From assembly GCA_902593475.1 (NCBI GenBank), contig CACJIM010000006.1:1-63382 (forward strand): DNA of 63,382 bases, read 5' to 3'. Of this stretch, positions 3,568 through 59,630 are shown piece by piece (the first letter of the stretch is position 1; each line of letters opens with the position of its first letter). Origin of the DNA: an uncultured Candidatus Actinomarina sp. Lineage in GTDB: Bacteria; Actinomycetota; Acidimicrobiia; Actinomarinales; Actinomarinaceae. Below the pieces are notes generated by a model that was not told where the DNA came from, did not search any database, and worked only from the letters and a program-made list of their open reading frames with translations. A program made the translations under genes and the position numbers.

Positions 3568-3599
3568 TTAAATCCTCCATAGTTATTTAAGCAAGTTTT

Positions 3600-3684
3600 A
3601 GAACGCCAATTTTTGTTGTCTAACCACATCAAAAAGCACCTTAGTTGGCAACTAGGTTGCTGAGGTATTCCTCTCTCTATGCAT
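3600..3684 (-). promoter_or_regulatory. SAM-I/IV variant riboswitch upstream of metK
   Basis: Minus strand GCAUAGAGAG-AGG-AAUA-CCU-CAGCAACC..AGGUGC..GAUGUGG; loop GCCAA (3649-3645) complements UUGGC (3609-3605). Confidence 0.85.
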
Positions 3685-3765
3685 TTAATATGGTAATTAA
3701 AATAAAATAATTTTCAATCAACAGACAAAGAAAACTTTAAATAATTCTTTAGCTAATCTTTAACT

Positions 3766-32182: not shown

Positions 32183-32274
32183 GGAGGTGAATGAGCGCCT
32201 GGTGGGCTCCACAGTCTTCAAAACTGTTGAAAGGTGTAAAAGTCTTTGGCAGGTTCGATTCCTGTCCACCTCCG
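32183..32274 (+). tRNA. selC: tRNA-Sec (anticodon UCA)
   Basis: Acceptor GGAGGTG/CACCTCC, G discriminator, long D-arm, ACAGT-CTTCAAA-ACTGT, long variable arm, GCAGG-TTCGATT-CCTGT; CCA not encoded. Confidence 0.93.
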
Positions 32275-32309
32275 CTACTTTATAAGATATACATGTTTAA
32301 TATAGAAAA

Positions 32310-55716: not shown

Positions 55717-56850
55717 TTAAACAGTATCGAATATTTTTTGAAAACTAAATTTAAAATTATCTGAGGAATAATTAGATAAAATGAATTCTTTTGCATTTAT
55801 CCCAACAGAAGTTGCTTCATTATAATTTTGAATCACATGATTTATTTTTTTTATCATGGAATCTAAATTATTACTCTCAAATACATAACCTGTTTGTCCG
55901 TCTATGACTATGTCTTGCATTCCAGGGGCGTCTGTAACAAGCACTGGGCATGCTGTTACTTGGGACTCAAATATTACTCTTGCTAGGCCCTCTGATACCG
56001 AAGGAAGAATCATTAAGTTATTTTCAGAGTAAAACTTTTTCACTTCATCTCTATTTTTATTTCCATGAATAAAAACTCTATCTTCAACATTTTTAGATTT
56101 TATTTTTTCTTTTAGACTTTCTAGATATTTTTGATTTGGTGTTGGGCCTACTATGTTCAGCTCAACCTGGTCACTAATTAACTCGGGCAAGGCATCGATA
56201 ATCATATGAGGTTTTTTTCTATCAGTCACACTTCCAATAAAGAGTATTTTAAATTTTCCACTACCATCTCTCATAGGGTCGATGTTGCTAAATATTTCAA
56301 AATCTATCCATGCTGGAAATCTTACAACACGTTTTGATGGATTAAAAGACAGTGCTTGCTCCTCTGTAGAAGAAGAAACTGCTCTCAACATATCAGCGCA
56401 ATTTATTGTGTAAGATGCAATCCTGGAAAATAAATTTTTATATAAATTTGGAAATGTTAGATTTTTTTCTAACTCCAAAGTATTTATAAAATCTCCATGT
56501 GATTCGATGACTATTTTTACATCTTTATACTTTTTTTTGATTTTATAAACACCCAGAAAACTTGTTACCGGATCTTGAAATGTAACTATTTCAATTTCAT
56601 ATTGGGATATTAATTTAGGTATTTGAAAATAAGATACAAAAAATATTTTCAAATAGTTAAAAATTCTTGATTTGTTTTTTTTATTTAAATAAAAAGTTGT
56701 CTTTGATTCAGAATGTATTTTTTTTTGGCTCGAAAATGCAAGAACTGTAACATTTGCGACTTCACTTAAATTATCGTACTTTTTTTTTATATTTTCATTT
56801 AAAGGTAAGTCATAAAAAGTTGGTGAGAAAAATAGTACATTTTTTTTCAT
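55717..56850 (-). CDS. GT4 glycosyltransferase
   Basis: ESHGD, FIG..RK, LPSVSEGLARVIFES, DGQTG. Confidence 0.88.
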   Translation of the reverse strand: MKKNVLFFSPTFYDLPLNENIKKKYDNLSEVANVTVLAFSSQKKIHSESKTTFYLNKKNKSRIFNYLKIFFVSYFQIPKLISQYEIEIVTFQDPVTSFLGVYKIKKKYKDVKIVIESHGDFINTLELEKNLTFPNLYKNLFSRIASYTINCADMLRAVSSSTEEQALSFNPSKRVVRFPAWIDFEIFSNIDPMRDGSGKFKILFIGSVTDRKKPHMIIDALPELISDQVELNIVGPTPNQKYLESLKEKIKSKNVEDRVFIHGNKNRDEVKKFYSENNLMILPSVSEGLARVIFESQVTACPVLVTDAPGMQDIVIDGQTGYVFESNNLDSMIKKINHVIQNYNEATSVGINAKEFILSNYSSDNFKFSFQKIFDTV

Positions 56851-57767
56851 AAACTAAAAAATTCTCTAAGTTCTGTTAATAGATCTACTTCATGTGTCCA
56901 TGGAACTGAGTGGCCAGCATCAGGAAAAGTTTTCACTTTTACTTCGTTTAATCTCTTAACAACATCATTTGAAGTTTCTTCTGGTACAAGTTTATCTCTA
57001 CCCCCAGTAATTACTAGGGTCTCAGCTTCAATTTCTTGTATCCAAGACCTTGCATCATAAGGAACAACAAATCTTCCCCCATCTGCGTAAATGAAGTCAT
57101 CTTTTGATTTATGCAGATTGTTCCATGCCCACTCTGTATATTCATCGTTAATAGAGTTTGATTTTTTTAAAAATGAAAACTTAGATTTTGGATTGAAATT
57201 AGGGAATAATCTTTCTCTTATTCTTACAAAACTAACAAATATTTTAAATGCTACTTTATCGCTATACACAGCACCACCAAGCCAGCTGAAAGGTGTAATT
57301 AAAACTAATTTATTTACTAATGGCTTATTTTTTTTAGCAATTGACATTGCAACTGCACTTCCCATTGACCAACCAACAATATTGCAACTTGAAATGCCAA
57401 GCTCTTTTAGAATGCTAATAACAACATCGGCATTTTCATCTACGTCCCACCTGTCCCAACTAGCATCAGACTTTCCATGATTACGCATATCTATAGCAAC
57501 AAAAGAGGTTTCATTTTTAATTTTAGGCAATATTTTAAACCAGCTTCCTAGGGAGTCTGACCCCCAGCTGTGGAGAAATATTATAGGAGTTGTGCCGTCT
57601 ATAATATTTTCTCTAATAAAGTATTCTTTTTCTCTTATGAATACAGTCCTGCCTGGAATTTTACTTGGGTGAATTTGTGTAGTTCCTGCAGATTGGCTTT
57701 TTTTGGTCTCGAGTAGGCTTTTTGTTACTGCCGTAAAAGCAAAAATTTTAGTTAGTGTTTTAATCAT
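56847..57767 (-). CDS. Alpha/beta hydrolase
   Basis: FLHSWG, DMRNHGKS, GWSMG nucleophile, GGRD, AGH; ATG overlaps selD stop (TGATG). Confidence 0.88.
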   Translation of the reverse strand: MIKTLTKIFAFTAVTKSLLETKKSQSAGTTQIHPSKIPGRTVFIREKEYFIRENIIDGTTPIIFLHSWGSDSLGSWFKILPKIKNETSFVAIDMRNHGKSDASWDRWDVDENADVVISILKELGISSCNIVGWSMGSAVAMSIAKKNKPLVNKLVLITPFSWLGGAVYSDKVAFKIFVSFVRIRERLFPNFNPKSKFSFLKKSNSINDEYTEWAWNNLHKSKDDFIYADGGRFVVPYDARSWIQEIEAETLVITGGRDKLVPEETSNDVVKRLNEVKVKTFPDAGHSVPWTHEVDLLTELREFFSL

Positions 57768-58795
57768 CAACTACTAATAATATTTATTTTTTGATTATAT
57801 CTAACAGTTATATTTCCAATTTCTTTTAGAAAAACTCCATATATTTTTTCAATTTCTATCAAATCTATATCTGTTTCAGCAGGTGCAGAAATTAATAATC
57901 CTCCACTGGTTTGAGCATCTGCTAATAAAAGTGCCTCGTCTTGATCCTCGAATGAGATAATGTCTTTTACTGAGTCAAAATTTCTTTGGCTTCCTGATGG
58001 ATAAATGCCACTATGAAAATAATTTTTTGCAAACTCAATGATTGGAACTTTATCGAATATCAAATTTGCTGATAATTTTTCATCAATCAACATCTCACTG
58101 AGGTGGCCAAGAAGTCCAAAACCAGTAACGTCTGTAATTGCATTTGCATTGAGGTGCTTTGCGACTTCAAGGCCTGCATCATTTAGGGTTGTCATTACAT
58201 TTGTTACCTGATTTATTGCTTCTTCATCGGCAACGCCTTTTTTTATTGCGGTTGCAATAATTCCAGAACCGAGAGGCTTGGTTAGAAAAAGTTTATCTCC
58301 ATTTTTAATATTCGTTTTTGTATAGATTTTTTCATTAACGATACCTGTTACAGCAAAACCATATTTTGGTTCTTTGTCATCAATACTGTGCCCTCCAACA
58401 ATATTGCAATTGGCAGACTTCATTACATCTGAGCCTCCCCTAATAACTTCTGATAAGACATCAAAACCTATATCTTCTCTTGGCCAACTTACTAACTGTA
58501 AAGATGAAATAGGTGTACCACCCATGGCATATATATCAGATAAGGCATTTGTTGCAGCAACTCTTCCCCAATCGTAAGGGTTATCTAATATAGGCGTAAA
58601 AAAATCAACTGTTTGTACAATTTTAGTTTTATTGCCTAGATCAATAACCGCGCCATCATCTGGATTTTCTAACCCCACTAAAACTTCAGAATTGTTTAAA
58701 TTATTTTGTTTTGATTGCTTCAGAACCTGAGCAAGCTCTCCTTGGGAGAGTTTACATGCTCAACCTGAGCCATGAGAATACTCTGTGAGTCTCAC
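57767..58795 (-). CDS. selD: Selenophosphate synthetase, Sec-containing (in-frame UGA at 58762-58760)
   Basis: GTG start after AAGGAGG: MRLTEYSHGSG-U-ACKL, continuing in frame into DDGAV, TVDFFTP, NALSDIYAMG, GGHS, TDVTGFGLLGH, DAQTSGGLL. Confidence 0.95.
58717..58762 (-). promoter_or_regulatory. Candidate bacterial SECIS of selD
   Basis: UGAGCA..CUCUCC-CAA-GGAGAG..UGCUCA stem-loop, with an alternative UCAG-GUU-CUGA hairpin downstream. Confidence 0.55.
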
Positions 58796-58805
58796 TTTAC
58801 CCTCC

Positions 58806-59630
58806 TTAACTTTCTTGCTTTTCCTTAAGAACTTCTTTCGCAAATAAATCTTGTATCGTAACTAATAAAGGTGACTGCTCAAACACTTGATTATCAATCT
58901 TTGAAACAAATACTCCATGTTTAGCTGTAGACATTACAAAAACTGTATCAACTTTATAGAGTTCATCTATTGTCACTCTAGAAACAGATACTTGAATCTT
59001 GTCTTCCTCACCAAACTTCAATAAATACTGTCGAGTTATTGAATCTAAAATTCCCAAATCAAGATCTGGAACATAAACAACTTCATCCTTAATCCAGCCA
59101 ACACAAAAAGTTGGGCCTTCTAAAACTATGCCCTTATTATTGATAAGCAAGGCGTCTGTAAAACCGTCTCTAACTGCTTCTCTGGTTTGCTTTATGTTAT
59201 AAGCATAGGAAGTTGATTTTGAACCAACTATATTTTTACTATCAACTTCATAATCTCCACCGGCATGCCATGGAGCGGGTTGAGATTGCAATGTAAATTC
59301 TTCGGGTAAGTTTAATAATGGTTGATAAAAAGAATAAATTGTAAAATCGTCATCTGATTCATTTCTCAAGATTAAAACTCTCACATAGCCACTTTTATGG
59401 TTTGATGCTATTTTTAAGATATTGTTTTTTACCAAATTAAAATCTACATTGTCAAATAGTTGTTTTTTGCAAGACTGTTTTAACCTGTCTATATGTTTTT
59501 CTAACCCAAAGGGATAGTGGTCATGAATCTTCAAAGCTTCAAAGACCCCATCTCCTCTCCATACCGCTAAAGTTTCAACAGGTAAAGTAAATTCATCTTT
59601 TGTAACTTCCAAATCATTGATCAAATACAA
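58806..59630 (-). CDS. Class IV PLP aminotransferase-like protein (IlvE/PabC/Dat family)
   Basis: RGDGVFE, HIDRL, KSTSY, EGPT, GILDSITR. Confidence 0.88.
   Translation of the reverse strand: MYLINDLEVTKDEFTLPVETLAVWRGDGVFEALKIHDHYPFGLEKHIDRLKQSCKKQLFDNVDFNLVKNNILKIASNHKSGYVRVLILRNESDDDFTIYSFYQPLLNLPEEFTLQSQPAPWHAGGDYEVDSKNIVGSKSTSYAYNIKQTREAVRDGFTDALLINNKGIVLEGPTFCVGWIKDEVVYVPDLDLGILDSITRQYLLKFGEEDKIQVSVSRVTIDELYKVDTVFVMSTAKHGVFVSKIDNQVFEQSPLLVTIQDLFAKEVLKEKQES

Follow-up and report, generated by a model that had tools for sequence, protein, structure and literature searches.

The selD gene of an uncultured Candidatus Actinomarina sp., located on the minus strand at 58795-57767 of the 63,382-nt stretch analysed here (contig CACJIM010000006.1, assembly GCA_902593475.1; the whole stretch is referred to as the window), is predicted to encode a full-length SelD (selenophosphate synthetase; selenide, water dikinase), which supplies the selenium donor for making selenocysteine (Sec) and in which the catalytic N-terminal residue is itself Sec, specified by UGA at codon 12, with a predicted Sec insertion sequence (SECIS) hairpin downstream. 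We assign this reading a probability of about 0.93. It is based on homology, the position of the codon, its conservation, the presence of the Sec machinery and RNA covariation; judged from these, Sec would be inserted into SelD, SelB would bind the second of two hairpins behind the UGA (hairpin 2) and the product would be an active enzyme.

An in-frame UGA at the catalytic position of SelD

The coding sequence (CDS; 57767..58795) comprises 342 codons, including Sec codon 12, plus a TGA stop. A table-11 open reading frame (ORF) listing reports this frame as a 303-aa protein (57767..58678) beginning at GTG 58678, and because the frame starts there the call is without the glycine-rich loop bearing the counterparts of Cys17 and Lys20 of Escherichia coli SelD, confirming the statement in an earlier note on this DNA that the called protein lacks its catalytic N-terminus. 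Followed 39 codons further upstream, the same frame reaches a GTG (58793..58795), read directly as the start codon, which is preceded after a 5-nt spacer by a Shine-Dalgarno sequence, AAGGAGG (58801..58807), overlapping the TAA of the upstream gene. This GTG lies just 10 nt past the TAA of that gene, an aminotransferase gene, while a start at 58678 would mean a 127-nt gap. With TGA translated as U the N-terminus reads V/M-RLTEYSHGSG-U-ACKLSQGELAQVL, and the elements that the note had described at this locus (AAGGAGG, GTG and RLTEYSHGSG-TGA-ACKL) were all recovered in place.

Read through the TGA, the protein matches the curated SelD equivalog models TIGR00476 with 381.2 bits (cut-off 125; residues 2-307) and NF002098 with 358.3 bits (cut-off 299; residues 1-336). 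It has the AIR-synthase-like N- and C-terminal domains of the PurM fold (AIRS, PF00586, 88.1 bits; AIRS_C, PF02769, 58.8 bits). A phmmer search against the PDB aligned residues 1-330 of the extended protein, the alignment to SelD homologues that the note had proposed as a check, with residues 6-335 of E. coli SelD (3u0o; E 2.7e-81). In this alignment U12 falls on Cys17 and K15 on Lys20, with HGSG-U-ACK opposite HGAG-C-GCK, and the TGA at 58760..58762 therefore occupies the catalytic Cys/Sec position that had been claimed for it.

The gene terminates in TGA (57767..57769), the A of which is shared with the ATG of the downstream gene, and is followed by a second in-frame TGA (57764..57766). The TGA-TGA ending had been read as UGA carrying both meanings on one mRNA, and this held for the first of the two triplets; the second is merely a piece of the ATG-ATT start of an alpha/beta hydrolase gene.

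The simplest alternative is that the TGA at codon 12 is a real stop, selD being truncated from GTG 58678 or a pseudogene and the upstream 39 codons untranslated. A standard ORF call yields precisely the 303-aa frame that this explanation requires, but the truncated product would lose the loop with Cys17 and Lys20, and the upstream GTG stands 10 nt behind the preceding gene. The distribution of the codon among relatives bears on it more directly. Our panel consisted of 41 genomes (the genome of the window, 24 of the same genus and 16 of the same class), 34 of which had a selD match, and one TGA was present inside each of the 24 genus matches, the window's own included. Codon-by-codon location of the TGA in the 30 best loci of the panel placed it at the Sec codon in 24/24 genus loci, down to 57-58% protein identity, so the survey of relatives for TGA versus TGT/TGC suggested by the earlier note gave TGA throughout the genus. 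In selD of other families in the class TGA was found in two of six loci and TGC or TGT in four. Among species-representative genomes, the best 80 loci, which span Candidatus Actinomarina/Actinomarinales, other Acidimicrobiia, Marinimicrobia and a few other phyla, carried TGA at that codon in 80/80 cases.

Within the genus, 62 of 64 genomes had a selD match, and all 62 matches, each starting at residue 1, contained one TGA, a count of internal stops per match in which the position of the codon itself was located only in the checked loci. The two genomes in which selD was not matched have a completeness of 77% and 80%. No Cys-type selD was found among the 62 genus species representatives with a residue-1 match. 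Both the panel and the 64 genus genomes showed one full selD match per genome, which is apparently the sole copy. The region upstream of the TGA is equally constrained: the 24 genus loci all have ATG, GTG or TTG at the same start position, most with a purine-rich stretch before it, and all keep the 11 codons before the TGA as the protein sequence RLT[EQ]YSHG[SA]G, while several orthologues have stop codons 1-6 codons upstream of the shared start. Protein-level conservation ahead of the TGA from a common start, retention of the TGA in 62/62 matches where decay would be expected of a relic, and the covarying hairpin behind it (below) make a real stop very improbable.

An error of assembly or sequencing that made TGA from TGT or TGC was refuted. 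Besides the 80 best public loci with the same TGA, contigs of two DNA and two metatranscriptome runs, independent of one another and belonging to four studies, extend over 58382-58830, and positions 58760-58762 show no alternative letter in them; as contigs, these data speak for presence only and not for expression level. The reads with TGT or TGC at this codon that the earlier note had named as counter-evidence thus have no counterpart in these contigs.

We also observed that, of the 62 genus matches with a full start, 31 align past a TAA or TAG near residue 341. This suggests that those 31 orthologues end in a stop codon other than TGA, and the double use of UGA, as Sec and as stop on the same selD mRNA, may not hold throughout the genus.

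Selenocysteine machinery and the meaning of UGA

The assembly that contains the window, 30 contigs with a total of 836,891 bases, has all the genes of the pathway: selA, selB, selC and selD. The tRNA-Sec gene (selC; anticodon UCA) lies in the window at 32183..32275 on the plus strand and was identified by both ARAGORN and Rfam (RF01852; 75.4 bits, gathering score 47), in agreement with the earlier note. A selA gene is present on contig 2 (PF03841; 328.8 bits), and adjoining it, with a start that overlaps the selA stop, is a gene for a 559-aa GTPase that covers positions 2-566 of the 581 in the SelB model TIGR00475 and has a GTP_EFTU domain (PF00009; 105.6 bits) and, at its C-terminus, the SECIS-binding winged-helix domain of SelB (SelB-wing_3, PF09107; 38.6-42.9 bits, cut-off 23.2). 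By its architecture and its place we take this GTPase to be a divergent, as yet uncertified SelB. The claim that this streamlined genome retains the Sec system was in this way upheld, with selA and selB side by side on contig 2. A search for the tRNA 2-selenouridine synthase (TIGR03167) gave no match in this 60.5%-complete assembly, which is not evidence of absence.

Upstream of selA, and overlapping it at its end, is a 375-aa ORF with a GKGGVGKST P-loop. Judged by its sequence without a family search, the encoded protein looks like an iron–sulfur carrier ATPase of the Mrp/ApbC type. The ORFs of contig 2:15297-19373 lie at 203-1330, 1330-2625 and 2622 onward (local numbering), selA and selB overlapping by 4 nt, an arrangement which suggests that the 375-aa ORF, selA and selB form one operon.

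UGA is otherwise a normal stop codon in this genome. Of the 604 open frames that are 200 codons or longer it terminates 130, selD and the gene for a SelW-like/Rdx protein (see below) among them, and of the 32 tRNAs in the assembly the tRNA-Sec is the sole one with a UCA anticodon, the tRNA-Trp having CCA. These observations bear on a second alternative, in which the UGA at codon 12 is read through as something other than Sec: as Cys or Trp by a near-cognate tRNA, by a reassignment of the kind in tables 4 and 25, or as Sec only when selenium is available. Sec is the predicted identity of residue 12, and Cys at this position would also make an active enzyme, as E. coli has Cys there. The frequent use of UGA as a stop and the tRNA complement, however, speak against reassignment; the full set of selA, selB and selC is retained in a genome of ~1 Mb; and all three in-frame TGAs recovered in this genome (in selD and in the Rdx and AhpD-like genes described below) stand at redox Cys positions with conserved hairpins behind them. 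We consider a non-Sec decoding improbable.

For the Sec reading, the expected course of decoding is that SelB charged with Sec-tRNA(Sec) would bind an mRNA hairpin within the selD CDS downstream of the UGA, hairpin 2 at 58734-58715 (8-bp stem with a bulge, GUU loop) being the most likely one, and would hand Sec to the ribosome at codon 12. The terminal UGA of selD has no such hairpin and would terminate translation.

Candidate SECIS hairpins in selD and two further genes

Two hairpins are predicted behind the Sec codon. Hairpin 1 (58736..58750, minus strand), CUCUCC-CAA-GGAGAG, is a 6-bp stem beginning 9 nt past the UGA and belongs to the minimum free energy fold. Hairpin 2 (58715..58734, minus strand), the candidate SECIS core, has an 8-bp stem with a bulged A58719 and an apical GUU loop at 58726-58724; counted from the TGA it lies 30-47 nt downstream. 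The presence of stem-loops behind the TGA, asserted in the note, was supported by the folding statistics: a 61-nt stretch folds with -17.2 kcal/mol (z -1.86), a stability equalled in 8/200 dinucleotide shuffles, and for the 51-nt stretch from the TGA only 1.0% of 2000 synonymous-codon reshuffles, which preserve the protein and the codon usage of the genome, fold as well.

Comparison across lineages favoured hairpin 2. We aligned 57 distinct Sec-type sequences without gaps (29 Actinomarina-type and 28 other rows), and in this alignment the four inner base pairs of hairpin 2 (columns 36-39/43-46) were paired in 96.5% of cells. Pair 36:46 occurred as five pair types (UA 29, GC 13, CG 6, AU 5, UG 2) and pair 39:43 as GC in 33, AU in 19 and GU in 3 sequences. 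Hairpin 1, taken in one fixed register, was paired in 71.2% of cells, and its register shifts between lineages. The covariation score of both helices together was 0.311 compared to a mean of 0.138 in shuffled alignments made without regard to relatedness, with 0/500 shuffles reaching 0.311 and slid controls at or below 0.120. Among the 29 Actinomarina-type rows the bulged register formed seven of its eight pairs in 27-29 rows and the outermost in 22, while in the other 28 rows the stem had no bulge and 7 bp, paired in 24-27 rows. The loop was G-U-(U/A/C) in 55/57 rows.

Hairpin 2 also follows the Sec form of the gene. It is missing in 4/4 Cys-type selD genes of the class, in which one to three of the four inner pairs and one of the three outer pairs form, and is complete, with all seven pairs, in 2/2 Sec-type selD genes of other families, a small sample. 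The hairpin is coded by residues A-Q-V-L, a motif absent from the four Cys-type genes. Across the SelD proteins examined, A-Q-V-L occurs in nearly all of the Sec type and in none of the four of the Cys type. At synonymous sites the Gln and Leu codons covary, as CAG...CUG or CAA...UUG (columns 36-46; window 58730-58720), and the loop-closing pair is thereby kept. We propose 58734-58715 as the likely SECIS core.

A gathering-threshold Rfam scan of the window found no SECIS family. According to the available text of an April 2026 preprint on this genus, bacterial SECIS are poorly represented in Rfam (bioRxiv 10.64898/2026.04.03.716425), and for that reason the null result says little.

The earlier note had expected other selenoproteins of this genome to be mis-called by gene callers, and two such genes were found. 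We scanned the genome for in-frame TGAs using codon-usage scores of both flanks, a six-frame comparison, the energy of a downstream hairpin and Cys-motif filters. The scan is lossy, selD itself being dropped because its short N-terminal flank scores badly, and it is noisy, yielding 59-205 candidates; two passed Pfam and conservation, and the outcome is not a complete selenoproteome. The first is a SelW-like/Rdx protein of 78 aa with a CVVU motif (MEIKLEFCVVU...; contig 4:7812-8045, minus strand) that matches profile positions 2-73 of 74 in PF10262 with 59.2 bits (cut-off 22.6). Its gene is present in 39/41 genus genomes, with one TGA in 40/40 matches. The second is an AhpD-like protein of 190 aa with the motif ECEYUIRAH (contig 10:9861-10430, minus strand), whose CMD domain (PF02627; 43.7 bits, cut-off 23) spans the E-C-x-x-U-x-x-x-H motif. 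This gene is present in 35/41 genus genomes, with one TGA in 36/37 matches, the exception covering residues 1-37 only. Use of the Sec pathway is thus predicted for at least two proteins besides SelD, with a TGA conserved genus-wide in both.

Each of the two genes has a candidate hairpin of its own. The 6-bp stem of the Rdx hairpin is paired in 21/21 distinct sequences, with one base pair occurring as UA in 15, CG in 5 and GC in 1, and has the loop AGUU(A/G). The AhpD-like hairpin has a 5-bp stem and an invariant GGUC loop, and uses CGG and UCG, codons that are rare locally and stay invariant while third positions nearby vary. The loop starts 34 nt past the UGA in selD, 18 nt in Rdx and 25 nt in the AhpD-like gene.

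In E. coli, the fdhF-type SECIS is a stem-loop right after the UGA with a bulged U and an apical GGUC loop, in which a G-U is essential. The Actinomarina hairpins resemble it in lying within the CDS and in having a G-U in the loop (GUU in selD, AGUU(A/G) in Rdx, GGUC in the AhpD-like gene), and the selD stem shares with it a one-nucleotide bulge. They differ in that the selD bulge is on the 3' side, and in that the putative selD SECIS, whose loop is 34 nt past the UGA, is separated from that codon by another hairpin.

Other candidates of the scan were discarded: C3:25862 and C2:26725 are upstream stops ahead of PNPase and of an AhpC/TSA-like gene, respectively, C5:3225 and C29:1758 are membrane proteins whose start follows the TGA, and C2:60554 is an ordinary stop. 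Candidates C10:30344, C19:530, C2:61827 and C10:11614 had no Pfam match. The first two of these, in the frames C10:30225-30533 and C19:228-698, both on the minus strand, have unusually stable post-TGA hairpins of -15.0 and -16.1 kcal/mol over 48 nt, flanks that are both the best of six frames and shared motifs such as YLQVI; they may be antisense frames of repetitive genes. Neither of two TauE (PF01925) matches and none of three AhpC-TSA matches in the genome has an internal stop, and a selenoprotein form of either family was consequently not found. A TauE/SafE membrane protein (contig 4:7102-7767, minus strand; PF01925, 77.8 bits) is encoded directly downstream of the Rdx gene in a different frame. 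K07090, the third selenoprotein group of the preprint, is presumably the TauE family, and some of its K07090 selenoprotein calls might be neighbour mapping of the Rdx gene.

The neighbours of selD in the window are likewise on the minus strand, a class IV aminotransferase gene upstream (58806..59630; PF01063, 127.1 bits) and an alpha/beta hydrolase gene downstream (56847..57767; PF00561, 88.9 bits), the start of which overlaps the selD stop. Elsewhere in the window, a pair of SAM-I/IV riboswitch aptamers was recognised on the minus strand at 2359-2451 and 3599-3687, ~1.2 kb apart, with scores of 70.7 and 59.2 bits for Rfam RF01725 (gathering score 41.1).

Comparison with known systems and significance

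Several points count against a Sec-containing SelD decoded through hairpin 2. Completeness of the assembly is just 60.5%. With 184.2 bits, the SelB candidate stays under the TIGR00475 equivalog cut-off of 242.25; the available preprint text likewise describes selB as sub-threshold with KofamScan (bioRxiv 10.64898/2026.04.03.716425). The shuffle control of the covariation score ignores relatedness and the region also codes for the conserved AQVL, both of which inflate such statistics. Hairpin 1 competes with hairpin 2 as the candidate SECIS, having the lowest single-sequence energy, although just 71% of its cells pair across lineages. The loop of hairpin 2, 34 nt past the UGA, is at the far end of the spacing in bacterial SECIS models. 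For the Rdx and AhpD-like hairpins the single-sequence reshuffle test was not significant, as ~10% of reshuffles fold as well. Finally, contigs from RNA libraries do not prove transcription.

Among prokaryotes, Sec-containing SelD/SPS2 is classically known from Haemophilus influenzae and Methanocaldococcus jannaschii. Sec-containing SelD/SPS2 was reportedly described by Guimaraes and colleagues in 1996, a paper cited in the Actinomarina preprint. The Actinomarina gene resembles the Sec-SelD/SPS2 of other prokaryotes in having UGA at the Cys17 equivalent in the N-terminal G-x-G-(C/U)-x-C-K loop and a recoding hairpin within the CDS just downstream. Nothing categorical sets it apart from them; it stands in a ~1 Mb genome and is apparently the sole selD copy. 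The consulted portion of one paper states that selenophosphate synthetase (SPS) "is often a selenoprotein itself" (Mariotti et al., 2015; PMC4561486), and that of a 2022 review ranks SelD with the most widespread families of selenoproteins in bacteria (PMC9312934), bearing out the premise of the earlier note that Sec-SelD is established in Sec-utilising bacteria.

The only literature that we found on selenocysteine in Actinomarinales is the preprint "Actinomarina, resolved" (bioRxiv 10.64898/2026.04.03.716425, April 2026). Its available text reports that all 84 complete genomes have selC, selA, selD and a selB that is divergent, and that the predicted selenoproteins number ~5 per genome and partly escape gene callers, selD itself occurring in selenoprotein form. 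Three differences from this text emerged. It gives Sec-selD for roughly half the genomes, with Cys presumed in the rest, whereas we found TGA in 62/62 matches and no Cys form. It treats the 78-aa family as uncharacterized, whereas here the protein matches Rdx (PF10262) and is SelW-like. It reports no SECIS with Rfam models, whereas here a covarying hairpin was recovered.

Sec-SelD is long established and the Actinomarina case is already in the April 2026 preprint; our current understanding is unchanged by it. The additions are modest: as a correction, no Cys variant was found; the 78-aa protein receives a family name, Rdx; and a candidate SECIS consensus is available, from which a search model specific to this lineage could be built. 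For annotation, standard callers trim SelD to 303 aa, and in all Actinomarina genomes they break up or miss the genes for the SelW-like and AhpD-like proteins; pangenome and pathway tables of this marine genus, which is very abundant, are slightly wrong as a result. In biological terms, the analysis confirms that a free-living cell with a ~1 Mb genome bears the cost of four Sec genes for the sake of a few redox proteins and the system's own enzyme.

A broader reading, to which we would give slightly less than an even chance as a whole, joins three statements: that the Sec form is the sole selD in every examined Actinomarina species, that SelB reads a minimal hairpin with G-U in its apical loop, 18-34 nt past the UGA, an RNA requirement that in selD would fix the motif A-Q-V-L (CAG GUU CUG) of the protein, and that the genus is a major marine source of selenoproteins. 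The last of these derives from the families involved. In the consulted portion of the 2022 review (PMC9312934), SelW-like, AhpD-like and SelD are the first-listed among prominent marine selenoprotein families in Global Ocean Sampling (GOS) analyses; the same three families were found here, although the GOS surveys are read-based and not genome-based. Much of the ocean selenoprotein signal, for which Actinomarina has so far not been named as a source, may for this reason come from this abundant genus. If the Sec form is the only selD, the Sec pathway must bootstrap itself in each generation.

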